Assembly (NCBI GenBank): GCA_024137785.1
Contig: JAHRHZ010000082.1
Span: forward strand, 15,462,419 to 15,526,418
Length of the DNA: 64,000 nucleotides
Origin: Ginglymostoma cirratum
Lineage: Eukaryota
Reading direction: 5' to 3'
The notes below the pieces were generated by a model, which did not search any database, was not told the origin of the DNA, and saw only the letters and a program-made list of their open reading frames with translations. Position numbers and translations under genes: made by a program. Positions 5,888-61,128 of the stretch are shown here, one piece after another (positions within the stretch are counted from its first letter, which is position 1; every line of letters begins with the position of its first letter).

Positions 5888-7270
5888 TAGAATCACAGAA
5901 TGATATAATACTGAAAGAGGCCATTCTGCCTGTTAGAGAAAGCAAGAACTGCAGATGCTGGAGTCCAAGACACTAGTGTGGAGCTGGAGGAACACAGCAG
6001 AACACAACCAGGCAGCATCAAAGGACCAGGAAAGTTGACGTTTCAGGTTGGGGCCCTCATTCAGAAATGGGGAGGGGTGAGAGAGCTGGGAAATAAATAG
6101 AGGAAGGAGGGTTGGGGCTGGAGAAGGTAGGTGGGATGGTGATAGGTGAATGCAGTTAGGGAGTATCCACTGCTCCTGATGTGGCCCCCCCTTGCATCAC
6201 TGAAACCAAGCGTAGACTCGGAGATCATTTCGTAGAGCATCTGCGTTCTGTACACAACAAACGACAATTCCTTCCAGTCGCCAACCATTTTAACTCCCTG
6301 GCCCACTCTTTGGGTGACATGTCCATCCAGGGCCTCCTCCAGTGTCACTATAACACCACCTGCAAACTGGAGGAGCAACACCCTGTATTCCACCCCAGGA
6401 GCCATAGCCCGATTGCCTAAACATGGAATTCACAAGTTTTAAAATCTCCCCACCCCCGGCCTTATCCCACATCCAACCCTCCCTCTCATCCCCATCTCCT
6501 TGACCTGATACAACCTGTCCATCTTTTTTTCCACCTATCCGCCACTCCTACCTCACTGACTAATCCCCACCGCTCGTTACCTGCATTCACCTATCACCAT
6601 CCCACCTACCTTCCCCAGCCCCACTCCTCCTGTCTCTATTTGTTTCCCAGCTCCCTTCCCCCTCTCCATTTCTGAAGAAGGGTCCTGACCGGGAACGTCA
6701 ACTTTCCCGCTCCTTTGATGCTGCCTGGCCTGCTGTGTTCCTCCAGCTCTACACTGTGTTGGTTCTGCCTATTATGTCAACTCTTTGGAAAATGTATCCA
6801 ATCAGTCTCAATCTCCTTTCATTTTACTAGAAACCTGTGATTTTTTTTTCCTTCAAATATGTTTTCAGTTCCTTTTTTGAATGTTACTATTGAATCAGCC
6901 ATCACTATACTTTCAGATAATGCATTTCAAAGCATCATGGTTAATGTAATTGTAATCTTTTTCCCCTCATGTCTCCATTGGTTCTTTGCCATTAGTCTTT
7001 AATCTGTGTTCGCTTGTTACTGATTCTTCTGCCTTTGGGAATTGTTCTCCTTATTTACTTGAACAAGATCTTTGATTTTGAACACTTCTACTTGAAGGAA
7101 AGCATCGTCAAGTTCTCTGATCTCTCCATGCAACTGGAGTCTCTCATTGCTGTATGAGTGAATCTCTCTGTACCTTCTTTAAGATCTTTGCACACTTTCT
7201 ATGTTGTGGTGCCTGAATTGTACACTGTTTGAGACCTCACCAGCATTTTATAAAAGTTTAATATAATTTT
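5888..7270 (-). mobile_element. Old CR1-type LINE fragment interrupted by a Penelope-like fold-back
   Basis: agaatcacagaat...gaggccattctgcct resumes after 6774 as CR1 3' UTR/ORF2-like decayed sequence. Confidence 0.5.
5936..6762. mobile_element. Penelope-like fold-back insertion with GIY-YIG C-terminal remnant
   Basis: About 230 bp of inverted arms. The middle encodes ETKRRLGDHFVEHLRSV...VANHFNS (ORF 6181-6420). TSD ttctgcct(g/a)tta at 5924-5935 and 6763-6774. Confidence 0.85.
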
Positions 7271-9496: not shown

Positions 9497-9628
9497 GATA
9501 ACAAGGTGTAGAGCTGGATGAACACAGCAGGCCAAGCTTGACGTTTCGGGCCTAGACCCTTCTGTGTTCATCCATCTCCACACCTTGTTATCTCGGATTC
9601 TCCAGCATCTGCAGTTCCTGTTATCTCG
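9497..9628. mobile_element. Miniature Penelope-like fold-back (family A)
   Basis: gataacaaggtgtagagctggatgaacacag pairs with ctgtgttcatccatctccacaccttgttatc. The right arm carries the tail. TSD ttatatttgt at 9487-9496 and 9633-9642. Confidence 0.85.
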
Positions 9629-15015: not shown

Positions 15016-16695
15016 TTACTAGAACCTGTTTTAAATTTTTTTAACGGGCATACTGTTGTTTGAAAATAAAGATTTATGTTCTGATTGTGTATAAAAATGA
15101 TTGGTCATCAGTAGTGACATGGGGGAGAGGAAAAGAAGATGTAAAGTGAACTTCGTTATTTTATCTTGAAACCACATTTCTCAAAAAAATGGTGAAAGAG
15201 GAATTAACACACAGACTGAGTGTAGCATGCTTTTTGTTCAAGGTTCATGTCATTGAGAATCTTGAAATTTAGTGTGACAGAAGCAATGCCAAGTTGCTTC
15301 TGTCATCTGACTCTAAACAATGCAGTATTATTGATTGGGACAGTAGCTGATGTGCCAGAATTATGCTGTTTTTAGTACTTCATGCTGTACTGCTTTAGTG
15401 TGCCAGATGGGCAGAAAACAAATGCGTGGGAACGGATTGACAGGAAATACTCTTTGATGAGAGAGTTAGCAATCAAGATCCTGATTGCTACCTGTTGGTT
15501 TGTGGCGTTTATCTTGGGTATTTTTAACATTAAAATATTGCCAAATTACTGTAATTTCATATTGAGTTTTATTGCTACATTTTAAATGGCACTAGAGAAG
15601 GAATTGGACACTTGCCAAATCCAAAATCAGACTGTGTAAGATAAATGTTTATTAAAAATGTAATAGCAGGAAATGATTTAATTTAGAATTAATTGTGGCA
15701 TTTGATTCATTGAAGAAACGTGCAAAGAAACATAGCCTCTCCTTCTCCTAATGCCAATCACCACCCCCCACCCCCACCCACTACAATCCTGGCCCCAATC
15801 ATTAACTCTTGTGTTCTTATGCTTCAGGTTCCAAAGCTTCTGATAATGATAATAACCTAAACATGCAAGGCAAGAGGAAGTTAAATGATTTGTTATGTTT
15901 AAGGAGGAAGTTAATGTACACTGTGCTGACACGAATGAATAATTTGTGATTCAGTAGTGAGGATTCTGTGGAATGTTGCCTGTAAGAATGTCGTGAGTTT
16001 GACATAACCTGCAACAAAGTTGAAACCATGGGATTTTTTTTTCTGATGATTATAGCAACAGGATTTAATTTCTGCATTTGAAAAGCGGTCCAGCAACCTC
16101 TGTGCTCAGTACCTTATTATGATGAACAGCTTTTCCAAGATCCCTCAAGATTTGTGTTTTAATTACTGCTGTTTCAGTCTCCTCTTCCACTGCACAAACT
16201 GAGGTATTAATGAGCTATTAATAGCTGTGTATTATTCCTTCCTTTCCTATGCTGAAAGTAGTTAATTACATTTTGAGCTGAGTAACAGTAAAAGGGACAA
16301 AAATAGGCATTCTAGTGATTCTTAATGTTACTTTTAATAGATAAATGCAAAGCATTGCAGTAAATTCATATGTCTGGTTGCTACATGTAGGGTACATGGG
16401 CCAGATGTGAGCAACCAACACAATATTTGTCATGTCTGTTCAGCCCCATCTGGTTATAGCATCTTTAAAGTAATGTAGGTAGAGGTTGTAAATCTAAAAT
16501 AATCAGGCTAGCTGAGGTAGGTGACATTCATTTAAAAAAGCCTGAGCAATACTCACATTTGTATACTGCTTTCTCATACTGAAATACCTCCAGGTTATTT
16601 TACAGCAAACACAAAATAGCAACGATTTCAATAAACACATTGTGCAGTTGCTTTGCAACAACAGAATGACACAATGATTGTGAGGTGAATATTGG

Positions 16696-16830
16696 TTCTG
16701 AGGAAGGGTCAGCAGACCCGAAACATTAACTCTGTTTTTTCCTTCACTGATGCTGCCAGACCTGCTGAGATTTTCCAGCAACTTTGTTTTTGTTCCTGAT
16801 TTACAGCATCCGCAGTTCTTTTGGTTTTTA
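16696..16830 (+). mobile_element. Penelope-like element 3' end (family B)
   Basis: ctgaggaagggtcagcagacccgaaacattaact. Flanking direct repeat aatattgg at 16688-16695 and 16833-16840. Confidence 0.75.
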
Positions 16831-20392: not shown

Positions 20393-20792
20393 NNNNNNNN
20401 NNNNNNNNNNNNNNNNNNNNNNNNNNNNNNNNNNNNNNNNNNNNNNNNNNNNNNNNNNNNNNNNNNNNNNNNNNNNNNNNNNNNNNNNNNNNNNNNNNNN
20501 NNNNNNNNNNNNNNNNNNNNNNNNNNNNNNNNNNNNNNNNNNNNNNNNNNNNNNNNNNNNNNNNNNNNNNNNNNNNNNNNNNNNNNNNNNNNNNNNNNNN
20601 NNNNNNNNNNNNNNNNNNNNNNNNNNNNNNNNNNNNNNNNNNNNNNNNNNNNNNNNNNNNNNNNNNNNNNNNNNNNNNNNNNNNNNNNNNNNNNNNNNNN
20701 NNNNNNNNNNNNNNNNNNNNNNNNNNNNNNNNNNNNNNNNNNNNNNNNNNNNNNNNNNNNNNNNNNNNNNNNNNNNNNNNNNNNNNNNNNNN
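20393..20792. other. Assembly gap (400 N)
   Basis: Run of N. Confidence 0.99.
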
Positions 20793-20814
20793 CTTCTTCA
20801 GAAAAATATTTTTT

Positions 20815-20842
20815 CTGAAGAAGGGTCTAGGCCCGAAACGTC
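20815..20842 (+). ncRNA. Minimal hammerhead ribozyme motif (Penelope-associated)
   Basis: CTGAAGA-a-ggg-tctagg-ccc-GAAA-cGTC: CUGANGA and GAAA core boxes, stem II, palindromic acgt stem III, GUC cleavage triplet. Activity untested. Confidence 0.65.
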
Positions 20843-21179
20843 AGCTTTCCTGATCCTCTGATGCTGCTTGGCCTGCTGTGTTCATCCAGCTCTACACCTT
20901 GTTATCTCAGACTCTCCAGCATCTGCAGTTCTTACTATCTGTGAAACTGCTTTAATTGTGGTCTGGGTTTATCATTGCAATCCCCAAATTAAAAGGCCCT
21001 AATATGAGCCAACCATTGTCACAATATGTCGAACTGAGAACTCAGTTCTGAACTTGCACTGATAAAGGCACCATGTTACAAATATGACACACTAAACAGA
21101 GGCTCTGTCTGTTCACACTGGGATTGATTGCACAAGGTTCTGTGATGTTATTCAGGTAGCCTCCTGGAAATTTTAAAAA

Positions 21180-25939: not shown

Positions 25940-26055
25940 AGTTCTGAAGTAAGGATTCTAAACGTTAACTCTGCTGTTGCCAGACCTGCTGAGCTTCTCC
26001 TGAAATCTCTGTTTCTGTTTCATATTTCCAGCATCCACAGTTCTTTGCTTTATTT
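25940..26055 (+). mobile_element. Penelope-like 3' end remnant
   Basis: gttctgaag...aaacgttaactctg...gccagacctgctgag...ccagcatccacagttctttg. Confidence 0.6.
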
Positions 26056-26190
26056 AATGCATGACCATTTTCTTGTCTAACTCAAATTATACAAAATTGT
26101 CATTGTCGAGGATTGTGCCTCCAGCTAAAACTTCATCTTCTCCTATATCACCACCTCAACTGGATATGGAGGTGACAGTGTTGGACTACA

Positions 26191-26364
26191 GTGGACAAAG
26201 TCAGAAGTCACATGATACCAGGTTATAGTCCAACAGGTTTATTTGAAACCACAAGCTTTTGGAGTCACTTCACCTGACAAAGGGGCTACGCTCCAAAAGC
26301 TTGTGGTTTTAAATAAACCTGTTGGCCTATAATCTGATGTCGTGTGACTTCTGACTTTGACCAC
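26191..26364. mobile_element. Fold-back mini-element with decayed hammerhead-like centre (family D)
   Basis: About 73 bp inverted arms: gtggacaaagtcagaagtcac...aagcttttggag pairs with ctccaaaagctt...gtgacttctgactttgaccac. Centre reads ctgacaaaggggctacgctccaaaagc. Confidence 0.75.
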
Positions 26365-26501
26365 CTCACCTTGACAAATAACTGGCTCTTCCCTCAGTGA
26401 AAGAAAGAGGGCAGTATATGCAAATGATACAAACAGTAGGAAACATGTTCTCAACTTTCAGTATGGTTATCCGCATTTCTTTGGCATATATATTTTCAGC
26501 A

Positions 26502-26875
26502 TCCGAAGAAGAGTCATATTGGACTCGAAACATTAGCTCTGTTTCTCTCGTCACAGATGCTGCCTGATCTGCTGAGTTTCTCCAGCAATTTCTGATCTTA
26601 TTTCAGATTCCAGCATGTGCAATATTTTGCTTTTGTTTAAGTGTTTAATTTACTGCCACTTCTTTTCCAGATATGCTCTTCTGTCCGACACCATTTCTGT
26701 TTTAATCTTTCGGCAAATTCACCTTCATTGCTTTCTATCCTCCCTCCTAGTATTTAATAAATTGCCAAAACTGGGTATTGAAGAAGAATCATATCGGACT
26801 TGAAATGTTAACTCTGTTTCTCTACAGATGCGACTAGACCTGTTGAGTTTCTCCAGCACTTTCTGTTTTTGTTAT
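26502..26875 (+). mobile_element. Two tandem Penelope-like 3' ends (family C), 26502-26640 and 26778-26875
   Basis: ccgaagaagagtcatattggactcgaaacattagctctg and ttgaagaagaatcatatcggacttgaaatgttaactctg, each followed by cagatgc...acctg.tgagtttctccagca-like sequence. Confidence 0.65.
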
Positions 26876-28404: not shown

Positions 28405-29385
28405 TTGGCGGAATAAGACCACAAGAGAGAGGAACAAGAGTTGACTGTTTGGCCCCTTGAGCCCTGCTGTGCCATTGAATAGGGTCACGGCCGATGTGAC
28501 ATCCCTCGCGTCCACTTCCCTGCCCTCTCCCACTAGCCCTGATTCCCCAATTGATCAAGAATCTATTTATCTCATCCTTAAATGTACACAAGGACTCAGC
28601 CCCCACAGTTGTCCATGGCAAGGAGTTCCAACGATACTCAACCTTCTGGAGAAAAAAATTCCTCCTTATCTTAGTATTAAATTGGCACCACTTTACTCTG
28701 AAGGGAAACATCCTCTTAGCTTTTACGCTGTCAAGCCTCTTAAGAATCCTAAATGTTTCAATGTGATCCCTCTCATTCTTCTAAATTCCAATTTTTGACC
28801 TTTGTTCATGAGCCCATCCTTCCAAACCAGGGATCATCCCTGTGAACGGAGATAGCAGGAACTGCAGATGCTGGAGAACCTAGTGAACCTTCTCTAAACT
28901 ACCTCTGATGAAATAGTATCTTCATGATAAAATAAGGGGACCAGAACTGCTTACAGTACTCCAGATATCGTCTCACCAGGCACCTTGTACAGTTGCAGTA
29001 AGACTTCCCCAATCTAACACAGCAGTCCCCTTGAAATAAGGGTCAACATTCCATGAGCTTTCTTTGATTACCTGCTGCCCATGTGTGCTAGCTTTGTGTT
29101 TTTTCGTACAAGTATCAGTAAGTCACTTTGTGTTGCAGCTTTCTGCAGTTTTCCTCCATTTAAATAATATTCTGTTCTTTTGTTCTCCCTTCCAAAATGA
29201 ACACTTTCATATTTTCCCACATCATACTCCATTTGCCCAGTTTTTGCCCATTTAACCTATTTGTTTCCATTTGTCTCACTACTTGCCTTTCCACCTATTT
29301 TTGTGTAAGCTGCAAAATAGGCTACAGTAAATTTGCTTCTGTCCTCCAAATCATTAATATATACTATAAACCGTTGTGGTCCCAG
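28405..29385 (-). mobile_element. CR1 LINE 3' fragment with internal deletions
   Basis: Minus-strand ORF remnant RRNFFLQKVEYRWNSLP...FKDEINRFL is a typical CR1 ORF2 C-terminus. Confidence 0.75.
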
Positions 29386-31105: not shown

Positions 31106-31190
31106 GTAGAATCCCTTCAGTGTGGAAACAGGCCCTTTGGCCCAACAAGTCCACATCGATCCTTGGAGCATCCCATCCAGACCCATCCCC
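31106..31190 (-). mobile_element. 5'-truncated HE1/V-SINE tail
   Basis: tagaatcccttcagtgtggaaacaggccctttggcccaacaagtccac matches 13719-13800. Confidence 0.8.
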
Positions 31191-31196
31191 CTTTAA

Positions 31197-31296
31197 CAAA
31201 AACAAAGTTGCTGGAAAAGCTCAGCAGGTCTGGCAGCATCTGTGGAGGAGAAAACAGAGTTAATGTTTCGGGTCCGGTGACCCTTCCTCAGAACTC
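31197..31296 (-). mobile_element. Penelope-like 3' end (family B), single arm
   Basis: Perfect 15-bp TSD cccatccccctttaa at 31182-31196 and 31297-31311. Minus strand reads ctgaggaagggtcaccggacccgaaacatta. Confidence 0.85.
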
Positions 31297-31619
31297 CCCA
31301 TCCCCCTTTAAGTTTTATATAGGACGTGGCACAGAAACAGGCCGTTCAGTTGAACTGAGTTTCATCAGTGCACAGTTTGGAAGCTGACACTCTGATTTTA
31401 GGATATGCTGCTGAAATGCAGCATTAGAAATATGAAGGAATCAAGGATTGATCCTTGAGGGATGCAGGAATAGTTCACCGCATGTGACTAGATAGATGAA
31501 AAGGAAACAGGTGAGCACCAGTGTCATACAGCTGGACAGCGGTGGAGGGATGTAGGAGGAGATTAGTATGGTTAACCAGTGGCAAAGGCTAGTTGAGAAG
31601 CACAAGGAAAGATGTCAAA

Positions 31620-31720
31620 CGAAAACCGAAATTGCTGGAGAAACTCAGCAAATGTGGCATCATCTGGGGAGAGAAAGCAGAATTAACATTTCAAGTCCAT
31701 TGACCCTTGTTCAGAACTGT
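31620..31720 (-). mobile_element. Penelope-like 3' end remnant
   Basis: aaattgctggagaaactcagc...catctg...ttaacatttcaagtccattgacccttgttcagaact. Confidence 0.6.
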
Positions 31721-31879: not shown

Positions 31880-32803
31880 AAATTGAATGAGCAAAAGAAA
31901 AGCTGAATTCTAATTTTCAGTTAATAGGAATTGAATTGGCACTCACTGGATCATTCCTTTAGGCTACTGGACTAGGATCAATAGCCCAATATCACCATCT
32001 TTTACACTGCTAGAAATTGACCTTAATTTCTTTTTAATGTAACTACCATCAGTAGCTCAGAATAACAGTTCCTGTCCTACATCACTTTTTGTCCCCTCAA
32101 AATAATGCTTATGTATTAAATCCGTGTCAGGTAATATAGTACAAGGACAATTTCAGGTGCCTGGTTACATTTACAGATGAGTTAACAAAAAAAGTTTTAA
32201 GTACATTGGGGACAGTAATTAAATGGCACTTTTGGAGCTGCACATATTTGTTCCCTTGGCTTTGGAGAATTGCGTGAAGTTAGGTGAACAACAGCTCATC
32301 TCCTCAGTTTTTTTAAAACACAAGTTGGAAGCCTCACAAAAAACCTTTACCACAGTTTCTGATAGAATTCATGCTGTTTGGCAATCTAATCTCAACAGCA
32401 TTTCATCACAATCCAACTTGTTGGTATGGAAACATCTTTGTTTTAAATTAATGTGTTTGAAGGAAATTGTGGAAGTGAATGTTTGGATCTGTCTGCTGGG
32501 TGGGAGAGGTTCCAGGCCTCATCACTAATAAACCTGAACAGTTGGGTAAAATGGAGCCATAGCTGAAGGTTTGAGGTTTGGAAATAGGTCCAATTGAAAC
32601 TTGGCAATTCACCAGTCCTTCAGTCTCTGAACTGGAGGAGTTTTAGTTGTTTGAGTTTGATGGAACTCTTCTGGCTCATCCTACATTTGACTGTGTGCTT
32701 CGAAGGGCTGTGTGCCAGTGGTATGGTGTCGAATATCTGTAACCTTTTCCATAAATGTTAGATCTGCCAGACTCTAGCCACACCTAGTTTATACAGAACC
32801 CTG

Positions 32804-32995
32804 GATAACAAGCACGGGGCTGGATGAACACAGCAGGTCAAGCAGCATCATAGGAGCAGGAAAACTTGACGTTTCGGGCCTAAACCCTTCATCAGAAAAT
32901 TTTCCTGCTCCTATGATGCTGCTTGACCTGCTGTGTTCATCCAGCCCCATGCTTGTTATCTCGGATTCTCCAGCATCTGCAGTACCTTTTATCTC
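32804..32995. mobile_element. Young miniature Penelope-like fold-back (family A)
   Basis: About 62 bp near-perfect inverted arms, tail on the right arm, perfect 15-bp TSD ttatacagaaccctg (32789-32803, 32996-33010). Canonical CTGATGA...GAAA on the minus strand. Confidence 0.92.
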
Positions 32996-33384
32996 TTATA
33001 CAGAACCCTGTCAGTTTTCACCTACCATGTGGTCAGAAATGTTCGTTTACAGGTTATAAGCAGCATTAGTCACCTTCACCACCACTGAAGTATGGGTGGT
33101 AGTTAACAATCTGTGGTGAATTTAAACTAACAGGGGAGTCAGATGTTATCAGTGATTGGTCAGAATGTGGATTACGATTTCAATCAGATCAGCCATGATC
33201 TTATTGAATAGTGGTGCAGGCTTGAAGGTTGAAAAGTCTACTTCTGCTCCAGATTTATATGATTGTGTGTAAATATCGCAAACTTACTGCTGGCTAATGA
33301 TAATGAATGCACTATTGCGAAGTTTCCTTCCATTCATCTTAGAATACAATTACACCACAAGAACAAACATGGCAGGCACAGATT

Positions 33385-34005: not shown

Positions 34006-34669
34006 GCACAGGTGCAGAGTCAGACAGGACTGTTCAAATCATTGTGCATTCATTTGCTCACAAAGATTAAAAGAAGGACACATTCTTCATTTCTTTGTCA
34101 AAAGACTGTCCAACCCCTTCTTGAATTTGCAGGTGCTGTCCATCTCCACAGTCTCTGCGCAGTCTGTTCACCTTCTCCTTACTGAGTACATTGTTTTTTT
34201 GAACAATGTTTTCAGCAAAGGTCAAATAATTCATCATGGGTCTGTTTAGCTATATTTCCAAATCTCATATTTTGAACAGCTGTTCCCCTCAGCCACCTTT
34301 TCTTGGGATGATTTCCCCCATTTTGCAGTCCTCAGTTTCTATTGGTTCTGACCCTTGAATCAATCCAAATTTGAGCATCAGGTTCATGCACTCAACTGTG
34401 TTCACCTCTGCACATTGGACCATAGGAGACAACACTTCCATGTACCATTTGCTAATGTCCTCTGTTACTGCGTGACATTTTCAATAGGATTCTTGAATTT
34501 TAAACAGCTTAGAAAATAATATGGGCAGAAAACATACTGTTTGCACTCTATGCTGCATTCCTGAAGAATAATGATTATATTGATTCTTTTGGGAAAAAAA
34601 ATAGTTACTGTAGGAGAACCATTTGGAGAAGTAGTTTAATCCCGCTTTTGGTAAGCTTGACCTTAACTC

Positions 34670-34805
34670 CGTTCTGAAGAACGGTCACTGGACCTAAAAC
34701 GTTTACTCTGATTTCTCTCCACAGATATTGCCAAACCTGTTGAGGTTTTCCAACAATTTCTGTTTTTGTTTCCGATTTCCTGCATCCGCAGTTCTTTCGG
34801 TTTTT
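34670..34805 (+). mobile_element. Penelope-like 3' end (family B)
   Basis: gttctgaagaacggtcactggacctaaaacgttt...catccgcagttctttcggtttt. Confidence 0.7.
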
Positions 34806-36830: not shown

Positions 36831-36954
36831 TTCAGAGATGGTAGGAACTGCCGATGCTGGAGAATCTGAAGAAGGGCCCAGACCCAAATTGTCAGCTTTC
36901 CTGCTCCTCTGATGCTGCTTGGCCTGCTGTGTTCATCCAGCTCTACACCTTGTT
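36831..36954. mobile_element. Penelope-like two-piece insertion (inverted tail plus tailless arm)
   Basis: gagatggtaggaactgccgatgctggagaat joined to ctgaagaaggg...accttgttat. TSD atccc(g/a)tgta(g/a)tatcat at 36814-36830 and 36955-36971. Confidence 0.8.
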
Positions 36955-40913: not shown

Positions 40914-41214
40914 GGCACAGTGGCACAGCGGTTAGTACTGCTGCCTCAGCACCAGAGACCCAGGTTCGATTCCACCCTCGGGCGACTGTCTGTGTGGAGT
41001 TTCTGCGTGGGTTTCCTCCGGGTGCTCCGGTTTCCCCCACAGTCCAAAGATGTGCAGGTTAGGTTGATTGGCCATGCTAAATTGCCCGTAGTGTTCAGGG
41101 AGGTGTAGATTAGATGGGTTGTAGGGGGATGTGTCTGGGTGGGATGCTCTGAGGTTTAGTGTGGACTTGTTGGGCCGAAGGGCCTGTTTCCACACTGTAG
41201 GGATTCTATTCTAT
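40914..41214 (+). mobile_element. tRNA-derived SINE (HE1/V-SINE type)
   Basis: A and B boxes, V-domain and ggattcta tail. Confidence 0.9.
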
Positions 41215-42379
41215 GAAGTAAGACGTAACAAGGGATGGAGTCTATAAGCCCCCGAACAGTAGCTGCACAAAGGGATGGAGAATAAATTGGGGTAATGGGG
41301 CCATCTATAAAAAGGCAGTATGTTAACCGTGGGTGTCTTTAATATGTAGATTTGGATAGTCAGATTGGCAGAGGTAGCCACGGGGAAGAATTCATTGAGT
41401 ATTTGGGACAGTTTCATCAAACAAGATGTTGTGGGCTCCACCAGGAATCGGGCTATTTTGGATCTGGTAATTTGTAAGGTTTGTTTAATAAATGATTTCA
41501 GAGAAAAGGACTTCCTAGAAAACAAGTGACCATAGCATGGTAGAATTTAGCGTCCAGCTTGAGAGTGAGGAACATGGATCAGAAACAACTCCACCCAAAT
41601 AAGGTAATTATAAAGGAATGGGGATAGAACTGGCTGGAGTGGACTCGGAAATGAGTTCAGAAGAAAAGATGGTTGCAGAACAATGAAGATGTTTAAGAAG
41701 ATAGTTCCTGACATCATCAAAGATGTATCCCAGTGAAGAAAGGGGAATTTAGAAAGGATAAACCAACTAAGGTTAACCAAAGAAGTTAAAGATAACATCA
41801 AATTGAAAGGAAAAGTAACAAAGATTGGAGGTAAGAGCAGAGGATTGGGACATTTTAAAAACCATTAAACTATTATCAATAAATAAGAGAAAATAAACTT
41901 TGAGGGTAAACAAGTAATATTAAGACGGACAGCAAGACCTTCTTTAAATCTATAGAAAGGAAGAGGGCGTCGAAAGGGAACATTTGTCCCTTAGAAAATG
42001 AAACTGGAGAAATAGGGAAACTAGGAAATGGCACAGAAGTTGAATAAGTACTATGCATCAGTCTTCACAACAGAAGATACTAATAGCCTTCCATAAATAC
42101 TAAATAATTAAGTGGCAAACGGTAGGAAATTTTAAAAATTCATTACTAGTGAAAAAGCTCTAGGGAAACTAATGGAATGAGAGACTGATATGACCCCACA
42201 TCTTGATGGCTTGCATTCTTGGATTTTGGAGACAGTAGTTCCATAGATAATGTATGGACTGGTAATAACCTTCCAAGACTCCTTAGATTCTGGATAAGTC
42301 CCTGAGGATTGGACAATTGCAAATGTAACACCTTTATTTTGAAAGGGATGGAGACAAAAACACAGATAACTATAAGCCA

Positions 42380-42610
42380 TACAATGTGGAGCTGGAGGAA
42401 CGTAGTAGGTCAGGCAGCATTAGAGGAACAGGAAAGTTGACGTTTCGCCTTGGGGCCCTTCTTCAGAAATATCAGTCTCTAGTCCCATTTCCGAAGAAGT
42501 CTCCCCTCCGTCAACTTTCCTGCTCTTCTGATGCTGCCTGACCTGCTGTGTTCCTCCAGCTCCACATTGTGTTGTCTCTGACCCCAGCATCTGCAGTTCT
42601 TGCTATCTCT
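42380..42610. mobile_element. Penelope-like fold-back inserted in CR1 ORF2
   Basis: About 90 bp inverted arms, tail on the right. Diverged 16-bp TSD agataactataagcca (42364-42379) and aggtaactgcaggcca (42611-42626) duplicates the CR1 GNYRP codons. Confidence 0.8.
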
Positions 42611-43665: not shown

Positions 43666-46600
43666 ATAGAGTCGTAGAGCTGTACAGCACAGAAACGAAC
43701 CCTTCAGTCCAACTCATCCATGACAACCAGATATCCTAAATAAATCTAGTGCCATTTCTCAGCATTTGGCCCATATTCCTTCAAACCCTTCCTAATCATA
43801 TACCCATCTAGATGTCTTTTAAATGCTGTGATTGCACTGGCCTCCACCTTTACCTTTGGCAGCTTATTCCATATGTGCACCACCCTCAGCGTGAAAACAT
43901 TGCCCTTTGGGTCCCTTTTAGATCTTTCCCCTGTCACCTTAAATCCATACCCTCTAGTCTTAGACTCCCCTACCCTGGGGAAAAGACCTTAGCTATTCAC
44001 TCCATTGATGTCCCTGATGATTTTATAAACTTGTATAAGGTCATCCCTCAGCCTCCGATGCTCCAGAGGAAATAACCCCAACCTATTCAGCCTCTCCTTA
44101 TGGCTCAAACCCTCCAACGCCGGCAATATTTTGTCAACCCTTTCTGAACCCTTTCAGGTTTCACATCCTTCCTATAGCAGGGAGACCAGAATTGAACACA
44201 GTTTTCCAAAAATGGCCGAACCATTGCCGCAATATGACCTCCCAACTTCTATACGCAATGCAATGACCAATGAAGGCAAGCACAGCAAACATCATCTTCG
44301 CTATCCTATTTACCTGTGACTCCATTTTCAAGGAACTATGAACCCGCGCTCCAAGGTTGCTTAGTTCAGCAACACTCCCCAGCACCTTACTATTAAGTGT
44401 ATAAATCCTGCCCTGATTTGCCTTTCCAAAATGCAACACCTCACATTTATCTAAATTAAACTCTTTCTGCCACTCCTCGGCCCATTGGCTCATCTGATCA
44501 AGATCTCATTGAACTCTGAAGTAGCCTTCTTCGCTGTCCCACTACACCACCTCTTTTGGTGTAATCTGCAAACTTACTAACCATACCTCCTATGTTCACA
44601 GCCAAATCATTGATATAAATGATGAAAAGCAGTGGACCCAGCACCGATCCTTGTGGCACACTGCTGGTCACAGGCCTCCAGTCTGAAAAGCAACCTTCCA
44701 CCACCACTCTGTCTTCTACCTTCGAGCTAGTTTTGTATCCAAATGACTAATTCTCCCTGTATTCCATCTGATCTAACCTTGCTAACCAGTCTACCAAGAG
44801 GAACCTTGTCAAATGCCTTACTGAAGTCCATATAGATCACATCCACCGCTCTGCCCTCATCCATCACGTTTGTTACTTCTTCAAAAAACTCAAAGTTAGT
44901 GAGACATGATTTCCCACGCACAAAGCCATGTTGACGATCCCTAATCGGTCCTTGCCTTTCCAAATACATGTAAATCCTGTTCCTCAGGATTCCCTCCAAC
45001 GACCTGCCCACTACCGTTATCTACCTCACCAGTCTATAGTTCCCTGGCTTTTCTTTACCACGTTTCCTACATAGTGGCACCATGTTAGCTAACCTCCAGT
45101 CTTCTGGCACCTCACCTATGGCTATTGATGATACAAATATCTCAGCAAGGGGCCCGGCAATCACTTCCCTCGCTTCCCGTAGAGCTCTAAGACACACCTG
45201 ATCAGGTCCTGGGGATTTATCCACCTTTATGTGTTTTAAGACATCCAGTACGATCTCCTCTGTAATATGGACAATTTTTCAAAATATCACTATTTATTTC
45301 CCCACGTCTGTATCTTCCATGTTCTTCTCCACAGTAAACACTAATACAAAGTACTCATTTAGTATCTCCACCATCTCCTGTGGTCCTATGCATTGATGGC
45401 CTTGCTGATCTTTAAGGGGCCCTTTTTTTCCCTAATTACCCTTTTGTCCTTAATGTATTTGTAGAATCCCTTTGGATTCTCCTTAATCCTATTTGCCAAA
45501 GTTACCTCATGTCCCCTTTTTGCCCTCCTGATTTCCCTCTTAAGTATACCCCTACTGCCTTTATACTCTTCTAGGGATTCACTCAATCCTTGCTGTCTAT
45601 ACCTGACACATGCTTTCTCCTTTTTCCTGACCAAAACCTCAATTTCTCTAATCATCCAGCATTCCCGAAACCTGCCAGCCTTGTCCTTCTCCCTAACGGG
45701 AACATACTGTCTCTGCAGATGGTGGAGTCAGAGATAACACAGTGTGGAACTGATGTTTCAGGTCAGGACCCTTCTTCAGAAATGGGGCTTTCTGAAGAAG
45801 GGTCCCAATCCAAAACATCAACTTTCCTGCTCCTCTGATGCTGCCTGGCCTGCTGTGTTCCTCCAGCTCCACACTATACTGTCTCTGGACTCTTGTTATC
45901 TCATTTTTCAGCCATCTCTTTACCTGAAAACATCCACCCCCAATCAACTTTTGAAAGTTCTAATATCATCAAAGTTGGCCTTCCTCTAATTTAGAACTTT
46001 AACTTTTAGATCTGATCTATCCTCTTCCATCACTATGTTAAAACAAATAAAATTATGGTCACTGGCCCCAAAGTGCTCCCCCACTGACACCTCAGTCACC
46101 TGCCCTGCCTTATTTCCCAAGAGTAGGTCAGGTTTTGCACCTTCTCTAGTGAGTACATCCACATACTGAATCAGAAAATTTTCTTTTATGCTCTTAACAA
46201 ATTCCTCTCCATCCAAACCCTTAACACTGTGGCAGTCCCCCAGTCTATGTTTGGAAAGTTAAAATCCTCTACCATAATCACCCTATTATTTTTACAGATA
46301 ACTGAGATGTCCTTACAAATTTGTTTCTCAATTTACTGATGACTACTTGCTGGGGGTCTATAGGACAATTCCAATAAGGTGATCATCCTTTCTTGTTTCT
46401 CAGTTTCACCCAAATAACTTCCATGGATGTATTCCCAGGAATATCCTCCCTAATGTTACTCTTAATCAAAGACGCCACTCCTCCTCCTCTCTTGCCCCCC
46501 TCCCCGACCTTTCTACCCTTCCTATAGTATCTATACCCTGGAACATTAAACTGCCAGTCCTTTCCATCCCTGAGCCATGTCTCTCTAATTCCTATGATAT

Positions 46601-46753: not shown

Positions 46754-48281
46754 TCTAGAATACTGTGAATGGTTTTTGTCCCCTTGTCTAAAAAAACACA
46801 TTACTGGCATTGGAGTTGGTCCAGAGAAGGTTCATTGGATTGATCCTGGGTATGAACAGGTTTTCTTCTGAAAAGTGATTGAGTAGATTGTGCCTGTACT
46901 AATGGAAGTTTGGAAGAATGGGAGACAACCTTATTGAAATATCTGATTCCTAGAGGGCTTGCCAGCGTATATATTCAGAGGTTGCTTCCCCTAGTGAGAG
47001 AGTCTAGGACCAGAGGGCATATTCTCCAATGGCAGATCCCTAGTTTAAGACAGTTAGGGAGGGATTTCTTCTCTGAGAGTAGGGAATCTGTGGAATTCTT
47101 TACTGTAGAGCGCTGTTGCTGCCGGGTTGTTAAGGATGTTCAAGATCCAGATAGATTTTTAACCAGTGAGGGAATCAAGAATTGCAGAGAAAAGGCAGGA
47201 AAATGGATTTGTGAACTACCAGATCAGCCATCTCATCGAATGGTGGTCCAGACTTGATGGGCTGAATGAACTACTTCTGCTATGACATCCAGCTCTCTGG
47301 CCTAAAACTGTGTTGGTGTTTTTGTGTCTTGATCAACTCCTGGTTTCAGGATTGTGTGGATGCAGGAAAGAAAGAAAAGCATCAAACCACATCCTGAAAT
47401 AAATTTGTTTCCCATTTCTAAATTACATCTATATTCTAAGTGGACATATGGTTCTGAAAATCCTGGAAGGCATGGAGGAAGAAGTAAAAAGGTGTGTAAA
47501 GCTGGTGGTGTGACTGAATTTCACAAGATGTTTGGATTGATTGTTTTCATTAGAAGTCACCAGACATCAACTGAATGTTTTGTTGTATTGTCGTTTAAAT
47601 ATTATGCCACTTTATAGATTTGATTGCACTCCTAAGACTGTATCTGTGTGTAATATACACAAAGCATGTATTATGTTCTGTGTCTGAGTATTATCTATAT
47701 TATATATAGAATGGGTGTGTTTCTCTGACCATAGATGCCAAGGTCTGTTCAATAGTTCATTCAGTGATTACACAAAAAACAGGAAGAGAGGAACTTAATG
47801 AAAGGAGAGAAGAGGTTTGGTAAAGAAGGTTCAACAGTTGAAATTAGACTTTCATCCTTATCCTAATAAAAATATACATTGAAATCATATGCTATGAGCT
47901 CTTTAATCAACTGGTACAAAGAGGGTCATTGTATTTGTCTACAGAGTATGAACCCTTGTATATACTTAAAGAAGTGCTTATTATCTAAAGGGGTTTGACA
48001 CTCTTCATGTTAGGAAATGTACTCCTTCCGTCACCCTCTACTCGTGTGGTCCTTTCACTGATGCTTGACACGTTCTTCTAAACCAAACAGCACTTTGGTC
48101 TAGCTGAATGAACTTCAAAGTGCCTAGAGAACCCCTGTGTTCCTGGCACTTGCCATTGTCTTGCAGCTTGACTTTCTTTTTCCCTGAGGTCTAATTACTT
48201 CCAACTGCTCGCAGTGCTTTGAAGTGGTGAGCACACTCGAAGCACCTGCCACAAACTGTAAAGTGCAGGTGGGGCGAAAGC

Positions 48282-48435
48282 AACAAGCAAGATTGAACTC
48301 TCGCCAGGCTGTCCATACTGGACCACTGCTGGGTTAATGTAATCCCCCTTCCACAAGGAACAAGCAAGACTGAACTCTCGCCAGGCTGTCCATACTGGAC
48401 CACCGCTAGGTTAATGTAATCCCCCTTCCACAAGG
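48282..48435. repeat. Tandem duplication, 2 x 77 bp
   Basis: aacaagcaagaYtgaactctcgccaggctgtccatactggaccacYgctRggttaatgtaatcccccttccacaagg occurs twice with 3 mismatches. Confidence 0.95.
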
Positions 48436-49044
48436 ATCAAGACTTCACAGTATTTTGTTAATTTAAATTAGCTGGTTCTGATACATTCTTACAGCACTGT
48501 GAATGGCAGGACAGTTTGCTCACATGCAAGCAATATTGACATTCGTACAGTCAATTCGCCAGCATTCAGAATTTTATAGCAGCCTTAAAATTGGTCTAAT
48601 GAACTTAGTCAATAATTGCTCTCAATTGCATAATTGTGTTTTATTGCTTGGACGTTGCACTGATGTGTATTTGAAATGCAGGGACTGCTGGTAAATTGAC
48701 CAGAGGCTTGTCCCCGGTCAACTGATGAATTTAAGGTACTTATGGGAAAGATAGTGTTGGAGTTGAGAAAGACGTTGGTAAATTGCTCTACACAGCCACC
48801 TTGTGGACATAATCTGGAAGTACATTGTGACAGGTGAGGGACTTAAATCCAAATGGTAATGATCAACTGGAAAGTGCGACCAAACAATGTGACAGTCTGC
48901 AGTCAGGTCTCTGGGCAAGAAGGAAATGTCCCACACAATATTTTTTGATACCGGAAATTTGATTTCACTGTTGGGTCCCTTAAAGAGAGATACTGCTACT
49001 CTCAGGGATAGGATTAGACAGGCTTAGATTCTGTTTAAAATTAA

Positions 49045-49990
49045 ACAAAGAACCACAGATGCTGGAAATCTGAAACAACAACAGAAAATTGCTGGAGAAA
49101 TTCAGCAGGTCTGGTAGCATCTGTGGAAAGAAACTAGTTAACATTTCATGTGCAACAACCCTTTTTCAGAACATATGGTAGCTAAGAAAAGGTGGCATAT
49201 ATACTAAAGATAGCAGGTTGGTTGGGGGAGTACATGATAGGTGGAGATGGAGCCTAGAGAGAGAGAATGACAGACAGACAACGGGATGGATAATGGTGAT
49301 CCGGGGTGAAAGAAAAGCTGGTCATTCGGGCTATAAGTAGGTGAAAATGGGTTGACTGTGCTGAAAGCAGCCTATCTCTCAACAAGGTTTGGGGTAGTTA
49401 GAAGACGTGGAAGATGATGTTCAGGCCCTAAAATTATTGAGTCCTAAAGGCTGCAGGGTCGACAAGCGGAAAATGAGATACTCTTCTTCCTGCTTGTGCT
49501 GAGCTTCGCTGACACAATGCAGCATGCCTGAGATAGAGATGTTGACCAGAGAACATCATGGTGTGTTGAAATGGCAGACAACTGGAAGCTCGGGGTCATT
49601 TCTTACAGACAGAACATAGATGTTCTGCAAAGCAATCGCCCAATCTGCGTTTCGTATCCCCAATGTAGAGCAGACCTCATATTCACTGCTCACAGTAGAG
49701 TAGATTGAATGCAGTACACATAAAGTATTCTTCACCTGGAAGATGTGTGTGGAGCTTTGGATGGTGAGGAGGGAGGAAATAAACAAGCAAGTGTTACACT
49801 TTCTGTAATTCCATGAGAAGGTGATGTGGCGAGTTGTTGGGAGTGGAAGAGAAGTGGACCATGGTGTCCCAGAGGGAGTGGTTCCTGTGAAATGCTGACA
49901 AGGGACAGGAAGAGAATGTGTGTCTGGTGGTGGCATCCTGCTGGAGGTGCAAAAATGGTGGTTTATGATCTTCTCTATAAAACCTACTCT
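49045..49990 (-). mobile_element. Penelope-like element 3' portion (GIY-YIG remnant)
   Basis: Minus-strand remnants include CNTCLFISSLLTIQ...FQVK, LGDCFAEHLCSV and ELPVVCHFNT. Family B/C-type end at 49045-49175. Confidence 0.8.
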
Positions 49991-51994
49991 GTTTAAAAAA
50001 AAAACTATAAAACTGCTTTAGCACAGGTACTATGTTGGGTGTTTAGGATATCTTTGGTACAGTGGATTAAAAGCTGATTTGATAGATTACATTACATTAA
50101 CGAAAGCAATGCACTTCTTGAGGAGGAGTAGGGTTGTTTTGTACAGCGTTACTCCTGATAAGAATGAACGGATTGTCAATATCCGTGATCTTTGTTGGAC
50201 TGCTGTGTTAAATTACTAATATTCCATTGTATACTTTTGAAGTAATGCATTATGTATGTAACATTTATTTGGCCAACCCGAGAAAGTCAGTTATAATGTA
50301 CACACTTCTAATAAAAATTACGCATAATTTCTGAAGGGTTTAATTTCAACCTTTCCACAGTTGAAAAGATGTAATGACGTGGATTGGTTCAGTTTTGCCA
50401 CTGTCAATAGTCAATAATGCCATTGCAAATGAGATAATTTAACTCCTGAAAATGTAAGTGAATGAAGAAGGAATGTTTGTATTACTATGTGCATTTGGAT
50501 GGAGTAAATTTCCCTATTAAACAAGACATTAACAAGAGGGATGATTGGAATGAATGTTTGCTCTACAGTGTAGGCATCAAGAACTCCCTGATCATTTACA
50601 CAGCTTTATAACTGTTACAACGATGGTCAAAAGTTCCCAGCTATGCCACATAAATGAGGTATTGGTCCAAATCTCTCTCTTTCACACATTATTTAATTTC
50701 TACTACTTCCCATTCAACAGAAATATCTCCTCCCTCTGCTACCTCCCTACTTTTCATAACATTGGGCAACTTGCCACAAGTAGTTTCTTTTATAGGGCAA
50801 ATTGATGTTCGCTGAAAACTAAAGGTTATACTTTTTCTAATTCAAAGTACTCAAAATCTTTAATTTCTCTACTTTCACACAATATTCTTAATCAGCTGTA
50901 AAGCAATTACAGTTCTGCACTCAAGGCATACTTCTTGAGTAATCCAATGACTTTCCCTAATGTGCAGTCTTAGAACAGTTAACTTTATATCTGAAGGCAG
51001 AAGCACTCATAACACTTAAGATGTATTTAGATCTGCATTTGTGAGGCTATGAGCCAAGCGCTGCATAATGGGATTAGAATAGTGAGGTGTTTGTTTTTGG
51101 TTGATGCGATGGGCTGAAGGCTCTATTTTCCATGCTGTAGATCTCTATGTCTATATTGATTATTTATATTCAATTTGGAGCACCCACTCCATCTATCAAG
51201 TTGTTTTGGTAATTCGAAACTAATTATTGAATTTGCATTAACCATAAAGTTTTTTGGCTTTGATTTGTTTTCTGGGTGGTGTGAATTTAATATTCCAAAA
51301 CTGGTTCAATAGTTAACAACAAATTGCAATGATAACTGCTGCATATAGTCTCATATAAAATGAAAAGGATCATATGCATATTGTTGAACAAACAGATGTT
51401 TCTGTTTGGATGCTGCATAGCTGAAGTAAAGTTTCATGAGTTATATTTCAGCATGACCTTGAACTTAACAGAAGCTCTTTCAGACTCCATGGGTCTTCAG
51501 TTAAGTGGGGTGTGTCCTTGCAAGGAAAGGCTGTGCTCAACAATTGACAAATCCAGATACATGGGAAAATCTTTTTCATATTCTAGCTTGATTTGGAGAC
51601 TCTTGAGTAAGGTGATGTATTTACAACATCTGGCACCTATGATGGTTTTAATGTGTTTGTATATTCATGTACTCTACCAAACAGGAAAATAGAATAACAT
51701 AATGAGAATGATAACTTTTAAGTAGCCACAACAGAAGCTGTCATACAAAAAAAAAATCAGCCTTAGTTATAGCCAAGTCCATGTGATAAATCTGAATTAG
51801 TCTATTCCACCAGCTTCCGAGGTTGCAGCTGTCTGTACAAGTGACTTGAAGACAGCCTGATTAGGCTGAAGAAAAGCAAGTGGGAATTCAGATTTGTGAT
51901 TGGTGAGAACTGCAGAAAACTGTAACACTGAACGCCTGGTATAATGCTCTCTGGGATTCTAAAGCTTGTTGCTACTCGGTGTGAGTATTTTAAA

Positions 51995-53310: not shown

Positions 53311-53403
53311 AAGAACCTTAAGTGTTACTTGCTCTCTGCTATTGGATAACATCATGTGACTACAAACCCCCATGACCCACTTAAAAATAACGAAGATTTG
53401 AAA

Positions 53404-54513
53404 GAGATAAAAGGTACTGCAGATGCTGGAGAATCCAAGATAACAAGCATGGGGCTGGATGAACACAGCAGGTCAAGCAGCATCATAGGAGCAGGAAAAC
53501 TTGACATTTCGGGCCTAAACCCTTCTTCAGAAATGGGGGAGGGGAAGATGGTTCTGAAATAAATAGGGAAAGAGGGGGAGGCGGATAGAGGATGGATAGA
53601 GGAGAGGATAGGTGGAGAGGAGGCAGACAAGTCGAAGAGGCGGGGATGGAGCCAGTAAAGGTGAGTGTAGGTAGGGAGGAGATAGGTCAGTCCAGGGAGG
53701 CCGGACAGGTCAAGGGGGCGGGATGATGTTAGTAGATAGGAGATGGGGGTGNNNNNNNNNNNNNNNNNNNNNNNNNNNNNNNNNNNNNNNNNNNNNNNNN
53801 NNNNNNNNNNNNNNNNNNNNNNNNNNNNNNNNNNNNNNNNNNNNNNNNNNNNNNNNNNNNNNNNNNNNNNNNNNNNNNNNNNNNNNNNNNNNNNNNNNNN
53901 NNNNNNNNNNNNNNNNNNNNNNNNNNNNNNNNNNNNNNNNNNNNNNNNNNNNNNNNNNNNNNNNNNNNNNNNNNNNNNNNNNNNNNNNNNNNNNNNNNNN
54001 NNNNNNNNNNNNNNNNNNNNNNNNNNNNNNNNNNNNNNNNNNNNNNNNNNNNNNNNNNNNNNNNNNNNNNNNNNNNNNNNNNNNNNNNNNNNNNNNNNNN
54101 NNNNNNNNNNNNNNNNNNNNNNNNNNNNNNNNNNNNNNNNNNNNNNNNNNNCTCCCCCAACCGCATCCCAAAACCAGCCCAGCTCATCTCCACCTCCCTA
54201 ACCTGTTTTTCCTCTCACCTATCCCCTCCTCCCACCTCAAGCCACACCCCCATCTCCTATCTACTAACATCATCCCGCCCCCTTGACCTGTCCGTCCTCC
54301 CTGGACTGACCTATCTCCTCCCTACCCACACTCACCTTTACTGGCTCCATCCCCGCCTCTTCGATTTGTCTGCCTCCTCTCTCCCTATTTATTTCAGAAC
54401 CCTCTTCCCCTCCCCCATTTCTGAAGAAGGGTTTAGGCCCGAAACGTCAAGTTTTCCTGCTCCTATGATGCTGCTTGACCTGCTGTGTTCATCCAGCCCC
54501 ACGTTTGTTATAT
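53404..54513. mobile_element. Young long-armed Penelope-like fold-back (family A)
   Basis: Near-identical inverted arms of about 300 bp, tail on the left only, perfect 13-bp TSD cgaagatttgaaa (53391-53403, 54514-54526). Intact hammerhead motif at 54421-54448. Confidence 0.92.
53752..54151. other. Assembly gap (400 N)
   Basis: Run of N at the centre of the fold-back. Confidence 0.99.
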
Positions 54514-59322: not shown

Positions 59323-59622
59323 GTGGCTCAGTGGTTAGCACTGTTGCCGCACAGCACCAGGGACCTGGATTTGATTCCACTGTCTGTGTAGAGTTTGCAC
59401 ATTCTCCCCGTGTCTGCGTGGGTTTCCTGCTGATGCTCCGGTTTCCTCCCACAGTCCAAAGATGTGCAGGCTAGGTGGATTGGCCGTGCTAAATTGCCCA
59501 TTGTGTTCAGGGATGTGTAGATTAGGTGTGTTATCAAGGGATGGGTCTGGGTGGGATGCTTGGAGGGTCAGTGTGAATTTGTTGGGCCGAGGGGCCTGTT
59601 TCCACACTGTAGGGATTCTGTG
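59323..59622 (+). mobile_element. tRNA-derived SINE (HE1/V-SINE type)
   Basis: gtggctcagtggttagcactg, V-domain and agggattct tail. Confidence 0.9.
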
Positions 59623-61128
59623 AACATCCATCACTTGGACCCCTCCACCCCGCATTTGTCCCTCTTCCACAACTACACTGGCACCATCCCTTACCTTTTC
59701 CTCTGCTATATTGATGACTGCATTGGTGCTGCCTCGTGCTCCCACGAGGAGCTCGAGCAGTTCATCAACTTCGCCAAACCTTCCATCCAGCCCTCCAATT
59801 CACTTGGACAATTCCTGACACCTCCCTCCCCCCACCGGACCTCTCCGTCTCCATCTCCGGTAACCGACTCACCAATGACATCCATTTCAAACCCACTAAC
59901 TCCCACAACTACCTTGACTGCATCTCCTCTCACCCACCCTTCTGCAAAAATGCTATCCCACGCTCCCAATTCCTCTGCTGCATCTGCTCCCAGGATAAGG
60001 TGTTCTTCTCCAGGACATCCTAGATATCCTCTTACTTCAAGGACCACAATTTCCCCTCCTCTAATTAAGGATGCCCTCAACCACGTCTCCATTTCTCACA
60101 CTTCTGCCCTCAAACCCCCTCCTCCAACAACAATAAGGATAGACATTTTTCCCCTCTCCACCCTTATCTGCCTTCCGAAGGGGGCCGCTCTCTCCGTGAC
60201 TCCCTTGTCCGCTCTACACTCCGCAATAGCCCTACCACTTTTCCCTACAACTGGAGGAACTGCTACACCTGCCCCTATACCTCCCCCCTCACCCCCATCC
60301 CAGGCCCCAAGAAAATCTTCCACATTAAACAGATGTTCACCTGCACATCTGCTAACTTGGTATATTGTATCTGCTATTCCCGATGTGGCGGTCTCTACAT
60401 CGGGGAAACCAAGAGGAGGCTTGGAGACCGTTTTGTGGAACACCTACGCTCGGTTCGCGACAAACGACTGCACCTCTCAGTCATGAACCACTTCAACTCC
60501 CCCTCCCCCTCCCCCTCCCACTCCCACTCCTTGGACAACATGTCCATCTGGGGGCTGCCTCCAGTGCCACAACAATGCCACCCGAAGATTGCAGGAACAG
60601 CACCTCATATTTTGCTTGGAAACCCTGCAGCCCAATGGTATCAATGTGGACTTCACAAGCTTCAAAATCTCCCCACCCCAACCTCATCCCAAAACCAGCC
60701 CAGCTCGGTCCAACCTCCTTGACCTGTCTGTCTTTTCTCCCACCTATCCGCTCCTCTCACCTCAACCCCCACCCCCACCTCCTACTTACCAGCCTCATCC
60801 CTGCCTCCTTGACCTGTTAGTCTTCCCTTGACTGACCAAACCCCATCCTAACTCCCCAACTACGCTCACCTTTACTGGCTCCATCCCCGCCTCCTTGACC
60901 TGTCCATCTCCTCTCCACCTATCTGCTCCTTTAGCCACCTTCCATCCACCTCCCCCTCTGTCTCTATTTATTTCAGAATCCCCTTCCCCTCCCCCATTTC
61001 TGAAGAAGGGTCCAGACCCGAAACGTCAGCTTCCCTGCTCCTCTGATGCTGCTTGGCCTGCTGTGTTCACCCAGCTCTACAACTTTTTATCTCAGATTCT
61101 CCAGCATCGGCAGTTCCTACTATCTCCT
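59623..61128 (+). mobile_element. Penelope-like retroelement, 5'-truncated and frameshifted (RT C-terminal half + GIY-YIG + pLTR end)
   Basis: LFLCYIDDCIGAASCSHEELEQFINF (RT YIDD), FHPALQFTWTI...KPTNSHNYLD..SSHP, FTCTSANLVYCICYSRCGGLYIGETKRRLGDRFVEH, EQHLIFCLETLQPNGIN. Ends in the family A hammerhead plus tail, which ties the mini fold-backs to Penelope. Confidence 0.93.
61000..61027 (+). ncRNA. Minimal hammerhead ribozyme motif (Penelope-associated)
   Basis: CTGAAGA-a-gggtc-ca-gaccc-GAAA-cGTC. Confidence 0.65.

Follow-up and report, generated by a model that had tools for sequence, protein, structure and literature searches.

How did an insertion made of two inverted copies of the same retroelement end, only one of which carries the terminal tail, come to lie in the genome of Ginglymostoma cirratum? 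The insertion occupies positions 32789..33010 of a 64,000-nucleotide stretch of DNA, here called the window. The two target site duplication (TSD) copies (32789..32803 and 32996..33010) are identical over 15/15 bp, and their score of 15 exceeds the maximum of 10 found among 144 random position pairs, which confirms the perfect 15-bp TSD of the original prediction. Positions within the element are given as offsets, counted from the last tail base (0) of a long copy that ends at 61126; this places the tail-less site at -35, the predicted hammerhead cut after -99 and the hammerhead 5' edge at -130. The minus-strand arm (32804..32898, offsets -129..-35) lacks the tail and has its inner end at the hammerhead 5' edge. 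The plus-strand arm (32900..32995, approximately -96..0) begins at most 3 nt from the predicted hammerhead cut and ends with a 35-nt tail (32961..32995, plus strand).

The arms derive from a Penelope-like element. Its long decayed copy (59620..61126, plus strand) encodes a YIDD reverse transcriptase (RT) fragment, a cysteine linker and a GIY-YIG endonuclease, followed by a hammerhead motif at about 60996-61030 and the tail at 61092-61126. Of the RT, the window contains only a C-terminal piece with a broken frame. The YIDD motif precedes an LVY..YIG motif in 59620-60720, although the reading frame is broken, and this order of RT and C-terminal GIY-YIG is that of the endonuclease-positive Penelope-like elements. 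In the Atlas the top hits of the endonuclease piece (0.96) are to eukaryotic clusters in which 18-27% of the members have GIY-YIG. The Pfam GIY-YIG match of this piece (E = 0.043) falls under the cut-off of that model, and the other 2 of the 3 pieces of the long copy have no Pfam hit. A CxxC between GIY and YIG with downstream histidines is present in the copy at 58795-59250 and, in decayed form, in the 60069-60722 frame. A GIY-YIG domain with such a CCHH motif, two cysteines lying between GIY and YIG, is described in the available text of Craig 2021 (PMC8557442) as a feature of endonuclease-positive elements.

The linker between RT and endonuclease reads CNCKRCNTC in the 58261 arm, and decayed versions of it occur at about 60245 and within 49430-50020. 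According to the same parts of Craig 2021 (PMC8557442), a CX2-5CxxC linker finger characterizes Neptune and Nematis and is absent in Penelope/Poseidon. An assignment to Poseidon was rejected because the linker cysteines are present. By its motifs the element is of the Neptune/Nematis type, the two clades taken together. The inverted truncated copies with a TSD and a 30-40 bp tail at one end are likewise those of Penelope-like elements, and the premise that inverted pseudo-LTRs (pLTRs) and a short tail are known in this group is borne out by published descriptions (PMC3846280 and PMC8557442, as far as accessible).

Other repeats lie near or within these copies. The minus-strand fragment at 49430-50020, a decayed endonuclease with the cysteine linker, belongs to a more distant Penelope-like family. 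A 300-bp repeat, which we take to resemble a SINE, sits inside the long copy at 59323-59622 and recurs at 12276-12579, 13717-14026 and 40914-41213. A second tail-like fragment without TSD is found at 61150-61200, approximately 50 bp past the tail of the long copy.

Six other insertions had been listed with the focal one, and all 7 consist of a minus-strand arm followed by a plus-strand arm, such that both outer ends are element 3' ends. The insertion at 5936..6762 has a tailed minus arm (approximately -230..0) and a long tail-less plus arm with an endonuclease fragment; its TSD (5924-5935 and 6763-6774) matches at 11/12. At 9497..9628 a tail-less minus arm (-122..-35, with a 21-nt internal deletion) is joined to a tailed plus arm (-69..0), and the TSD matches at 13/14. 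The copy at 36831..36954 combines a minus arm that is tail only (-34..0) with a tail-less plus arm (-127..-38) and has a TSD of 15/17. Both inner ends at 42380..42610 lie at the hammerhead 5' edge and are separated by a 13-nt filler; here the TSD is weak (12/16). At 45716..45875 the tail on the minus arm is partial (22/35 nt), an arm carries an internal deletion and the 12-bp TSD is perfect. In the last copy (53404..54509) the tail is on the minus arm, the TSD matches at 16/17 and the centre falls in an assembly gap (53752-54151, 400 N).

The claim that all seven insertions are bounded by TSDs holds strongly at four of them. The scores are 15 at 32804, 14 at 53404, 12 at 45716, 11 at 9497, 11 at 36831, 9 at 5936 and 5 at 42380. 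Five of the 7 are above all 144 random pairs, of which 2 reach 9, so that 5936 is borderline. The 12/16 repeat at 42380 is weak, being equalled by 22 of 5000 random pairs. The duplication at 45716 is ambiguous: its right copy and the bases that follow resemble the element itself, and an alternative parse with two damaged tails may apply, which makes the TSD parse less safe. Where TSDs abut both outer ends, the whole unit therefore entered at once.

Exactly one tail per insertion is seen at 7/7 listed loci, in full at 6 and as 22 of 35 nt at 45716. If the ends were independent, the chance of this would be at most 0.008 for 7/7 and 0.016 for 6/6, figures that apply to loci chosen by the original prediction. 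The tail-less ends fall between -35 and about -43. The variation in which side carries the tail, which had been offered as evidence, is uninformative because flipping an insertion swaps its sides.

As a general rule the one-tail fold-back fails, as single-arm and tail-less copies occur in the same window. The window contains 11 arms of a related subfamily: 9 single arms (6 tailed, 3 tail-less) and 1 tail-less fold-back, the left end of which is not a 3' end. One of the single tail-less arms (31197..31296, minus strand) has a perfect 15-bp TSD (31182-31196 and 31297-31311). A fragment consisting of the tail only (28849..28883, minus strand) has a 6-bp flanking repeat, within chance. Among the 13 other arms and fragments searched for TSDs there was 1 clear case (31197), 1 borderline case of 8 bp (16695) and 11 within chance. 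Two-arm units are therefore one outcome among several.

A fold-back outside the original list (26165..26359) belongs to a different hammerhead-like family that has no other copy in the window. Its tail of about 31 nt is on the left arm only, and its tail-less arm begins just before the core. The TSD (26150-26164 and 26360-26374) matches at 13/15, with a score of 9 that is borderline against the 144-pair null.

Several further copies were observed. The related-subfamily copies of 100-140 bp begin at the hammerhead 5' edge, and none extends upstream in the window (739-890, 1723-1862, 16695-16828, 25940-26052, 26496-26634, 26779-26873, 31197-31296, 31620-31719, 34668-34803 and 49045-49171); these may be a short non-autonomous form. 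The fold-back at 20793-20941 is a stub: its two inner ends lie at the hammerhead edge, and its left part falls inside a gap (20393-20792); the arm to the left of this gap belongs to another subfamily than the stub. A 77-bp unit at 48278-48441 is tandemly duplicated with 94% likeness. The pairs 20285/20940 and 58261/61127 were considered as single insertions and rejected, as each combines different subfamilies without a TSD; they are excluded from all counts.

The centres of the insertions differ at 6/6 visible junctions, that of 53404 being hidden by the gap. This upholds independent insertions over a fixed MITE consensus; the inner ends, however, are clustered and not random. The arms overlap by 5 nt at 36831 and by about 6 nt at 9497, are separated by 0-2 nt at 32804 and 45716, and nearly abut at 5936. 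The filler at 42380 with its borders (42469-42489) matches the inverted flank 200 bp upstream (42171-42191) at 18/21 positions, resembling templated end joining to judge from the letters. An exact match of 12 nt, as found there, also occurs with 174 of 20000 random probes, and 42380 was one of the 7 junctions examined.

Six of the 12 known inner ends lie within -134..-127, at the hammerhead 5' edge. Considering the 10 ends that are at most 160 nt from the tail end, 6 fall in one 8-nt window (P = 0.0006, post hoc). In the related subfamily approximately 10 of 11 arms begin at this edge by alignment. Hammerhead cleavage was rejected as the cause of the inner ends, with 1/12 (32900) at the predicted cut site. 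The edge is likely to be the 5' end of the RNA; stops there suggest an RNA end over a pause, because an RT would meet the 3' side of the hairpin first. The sequence at this edge may fit an initiator consensus. In the public contigs described below, no loose-end peak at -130 occurs among the rows listed, and contig depth declines gradually there.

The hammerhead itself is a pattern match. A minimal hammerhead-like core was found at 11 places by scanning the window, including 32865..32898 (minus strand) in the focal minus arm, and Rfam at its gathering score gave 0 matches in the window. Helix II folded in 2 of 4 hammerhead-bearing pieces tried, and the full hammerhead in none. Minimal motifs of this type are described for Penelope-like elements in the accessible part of Cervera 2014 (PMC4209133). 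A 7-bp outer stem is predicted between the tail core and the body upstream of it, and each of its pairs is kept in 10 or 11 of 11 copies. Folding models thus suggest a stem between tail and body, for which the consensus covariation term is only -0.12; single 3' ends folded alone (z-scores -0.09 and 0.31) have no unusual stability. In the youngest subfamily an ATG-started frame is open through the pLTR end and the tail (53441-53490, minus strand; 32913-32995), and it is shifted in the older subfamily.

The two arms also differ in how far they extend. At 4/6 loci the tail-less arm extends past the 5' limit of the tailed arm by 33 to more than 500 nt, the largest excess being that at 5936, and at the other 2/6 the arms end within 5 nt of each other. 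The unlisted fold-back at 26165 has the same direction of asymmetry. Because four asymmetries out of four in one direction have a two-sided chance of 1 in 8, this is only modest evidence. As 4/6 tail-less arms hold sequence that is absent from the tailed arm, they are not plain copies of the tailed cDNA, although later deletion at palindrome centres could also be a source of the asymmetry. Tail-only arms that end at about -34 are present at 36831, at 28849 and in one opposite-strand joint of a public contig run (X15).

At the tail-less end the target resembles the beginning of the tail. The target, read from the TSD copy beside the tailed arm, matches the first 10 nt of the tail at 35 of 70 positions over the 7 loci (null mean 19.7, with boundary shifting allowed in the null; P = 0.0002, post hoc). 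Without 45716 and 42380 the P value is 0.001, and the one held-out locus gives 5/10 matches (P = 0.12). The same signal would be expected if the endonuclease preferred tail-like DNA or if a sense copy were joined to the target. Arms of the same insertion are nearest neighbours in 1 of 4 testable loci, and there one-sidedly, so this comparison lends no support to a single RNA template. Arm-to-arm identity was discarded as a test of one against two RNAs, as it has no power among young copies that are 94-100% alike.

Contigs from 4 of 17 public runs were compared with 53250-53751, a 502-bp stretch containing one arm and its flank. Between 13749 and 34008 contigs per run match this stretch. The figures for loose ends refer to the 24 rows listed (1281 further rows exist). 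In X15 the tail end has 101 loose ends and the tail-less end, 35 nt away, has 34, each counted at its single best base. The flanks of these loose ends are dissimilar (agreement only 0.41), and the consensus of the 34 tail-less ends terminates in the complement of the tail start. X14 has 121 loose ends at the tail end. A tail-less peak is absent for X14, X8 and X2 among the rows listed, as is a tail-end peak for X8 and X2. The proposed pair of RNA start points 35 nt apart is thus matched by both peaks in X15 but only by the tail-end peak in X14 among the rows listed.

The focal junction itself occurs in one X15 contig, where -129 is joined to -97 on opposite strands (53501/53533) at a depth of 72, and is not among the joints listed for X14, X8 and X2. 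X15 may share its source with the window, and the independence of this contig is thus uncertain. A second X15 joint on opposite strands (53436/53493) connects a tail-only arm to an inverted arm, and X14 has a second joint, of unstated kind, at the same place. Contig depth is not copy number and was not taken as a ratio of tail to body; the depth of 72, against millions summed over the arm, is a rough guide. Two studies of organism A each contribute one contig that continues along the flank and across the TSD, then departs at 53403, leaving 472 and 273 letters unmatched. The 53404 site is therefore likely to be empty in a related organism; the expectation of empty sites in relatives is supported at this one locus by where the contigs depart. 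Beside the tail end at 53403, the last seven letters of the loose-end consensus are alike in X14 and X15, and may reflect either template continuation or target preference. A metagenome scan with a 19-letter pattern returned 8 loci. In each of them the match to the window is no longer than 30 bases, and these loci are taken as chance.

Taken together, we consider it probable that each insertion arose independently from the hammerhead-bearing 3' end of a Neptune/Nematis-type element, and that both nicked target strands primed reverse transcription at RNA positions about 35 nt apart and the products were joined centrally. The family, the arm orientation, the TSDs, the two end positions and the differing centres are seen directly, in only seven loci that were all chosen by the original prediction. 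Nicks 12-17 bp apart would leave two 3' overhangs. One target strand would prime at the end of the RNA tail. The other would prime at a site about 35 nt inward, through partial pairing of its overhang with the first tail bases. Both primers would probably sit on one RNA and hence use different start bases, yielding one tail; it is proposed that there is one tail per unit because primers sharing one RNA cannot start at the same base. Synthesis would often run off at the hammerhead 5' edge, the likely RNA 5' end, and the two cDNAs would then be joined in the centre by end joining. Priming by a single strand would give a single arm, tailed or tail-less. The doubled body could arise if the same RNA were copied twice, if a second RNA were used or if the tail-less cDNA folded back. 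The outer ends inside the TSD match the expected extension of a target 3'-OH with cDNA. Priming of both strands at two RNA sites, as originally predicted, is the best reading and agrees with the asymmetry at 4/6 loci, whereas the central joining of cDNAs is inferred. Evidence on the other side is the excess of tail-end over tail-less loose ends in X15 and, among the rows listed, the lack of a peak at -130.

A stronger version, which we regard as tentative, is that Neptune-type Penelope elements routinely insert by twin priming on a single RNA. Here the second strand would anneal to the first ten tail bases and prime 35 nt ahead, and the trailing cDNA would never overtake the leading one. Just upstream of the hammerhead both cDNAs would run off at a start site, and the centre would then be closed by end joining of the host. 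If true, this would explain the inverted pLTR, the one-sided tail, the tail-only arms and the hammerhead-headed mini-copies together.

The published explanation of such layouts is different. Following single priming, a cDNA or antisense template would fold back and self-prime the mirror arm, after which the endonuclease or end joining would leave one tail. In the sections accessible, Arkhipova 2013 (PMC3846280) reads inverted junction palindromes as self-priming, and Craig 2021 (PMC8557442) attributes the tail to resolution mediated by the endonuclease. Hairpins would account for the near-symmetric centres at 42380, 45716, 739 and the 20793 stub, and a sense copy joined to the target would presumably give the homology at the tail-less end as well. 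However, 4/6 tail-less arms hold extra sequence while the tailed arm holds the tail, which under this route would need later deletion; the tail-only arms stop at the second start site, and the start sites found in vitro coincide with both ends in the accessible text of Frangieh 2024 (PMC11167929). The asymmetry and the resemblance at the tail-less end therefore favour both-strand priming over a single-cDNA fold-back, which we regard as unlikely.

Later changes to ordinary single-arm insertions, which repair or replication errors might have palindromized or trimmed, are very improbable. Single-arm copies are indeed common in the window and arms at 9497 and 45716 have internal deletions, but the TSDs at both outer ends imply the entry of whole units, and the tail-less ends fall in a narrow range. 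Amplification of a pre-formed palindromic unit by a DNA transposase is largely refuted and has very little to recommend it. The inverted terminal arms, the TSD and the small size are shared with MITEs, whereas all of the 6/6 visible centres are unlike one another, TSD length ranges from 12 to 17 bp, the tail makes the termini unequal, the arms extend into RT and endonuclease sequence, and the 32804 junction is in 1 contig at a depth of 72 against millions over the arm (depth being rough). The fixed interior, symmetric termini and constant short TSD of a MITE were not found; there is a variable long TSD, and the interior is retroelement sequence. Equally far-fetched is an assembly artefact or a chance head-to-head arrangement of neighbours. 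Two loci do sit on 400-N gaps, and 20285/20940 and 58261/61127 do pair arms of different subfamilies without a TSD; against this, TSDs exceed the random range at 5/7 loci and the organism A contigs from two studies depart exactly at the 53403 boundary. The artefact objection is partly answered by the focal junction in an X15 contig, which possibly comes from the window's own source, but the junction is not listed for the other 3 runs.

Neither the layout nor the start sites are new. Inverted pLTRs with a tail at one end are described for endonuclease-positive Penelope-like elements (Arkhipova 2013, PMC3846280; Craig 2021, PMC8557442; parts of both), and two RT start sites bounding the tail were found in vitro for the Poseidon element PAc of the green anole (Frangieh 2024, PMC11167929, in part). 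Compared with the published inverted-pLTR insertions, many units here are only 120-230 bp long and their inner ends cluster at the hammerhead 5' edge. The TSDs of 12-17 bp contrast with 8-10 bp in the rotifer examples, and the available text of these two papers accounts for the layout through self-priming or resolution by the endonuclease and does not invoke double priming on the target (PMC3846280, PMC8557442). Craig 2021 still calls the origin of the inverted ends and the one-sided tail undefined, in the portion accessible (PMC8557442).

Further results for PAc are given in the accessible portion of Frangieh 2024 (PMC11167929). Reverse transcription begins in a stem-loop that lies downstream of the hammerhead, cutting and extension occur on both target strands, and a dimer is predicted. 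Priming was seen without homology to the cut DNA and the start site is alike between strands, which alone predicts two-tail and zero-tail copies too. The pairing of a long with a short end and central joining are undiscussed in its main text. PAc belongs to a sister clade; the family here has a CX4CxxC linker that Penelope/Poseidon lack.

L1 twin or dual priming is a further parallel. In that mechanism an inverted cDNA is primed by the second target overhang after this has annealed at an internal position of the RNA, according to the passages available of Meyer 2010 (PMC2837659). The likeness lies in the TSD around the unit, the microhomology at the outer junction and the end-joined centre. 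The microhomology was found here post hoc (35/70, P = 0.0002), with 5/10 at the held-out locus (P = 0.12). The internal site of L1 is variable and its arms do not overlap (PMC2837659, same passages). In the insertions studied here, by contrast, the second site hardly departs from the tail start, and the two arms usually have the same 60-100 nt in common. Non-overlapping arms were found at 36831 only (1/7); the arms overlap at the other 6.

In the literature searched, which left subscription papers mostly outside its reach, no strict long-short pairing and no homology at the tail-less end is stated. Recurrent tail-only arms, and tailed arms that never extend much further 5', were likewise not found in the portions examined. 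The passages available of PMC12910113, PMC9977147 and bioRxiv 10.64898/2026.07.22.740005 are silent on the question of layout.

The focal insertion is a clean example of a known layout, and its mechanism is largely anticipated by published in vitro work. What is added here are three countable hints: the one-tail pairing, the homology at the tail-less end and the arm asymmetry. In genomes with tens of thousands of short copies, every event leaves a record of its two ends and its centre. The pairing rule, the target-template homology and the arm asymmetry can be counted directly in such genomes and examined in the in vitro system already published. In annotations, palindromes of this kind belong with Penelope-like insertions and not with MITEs.
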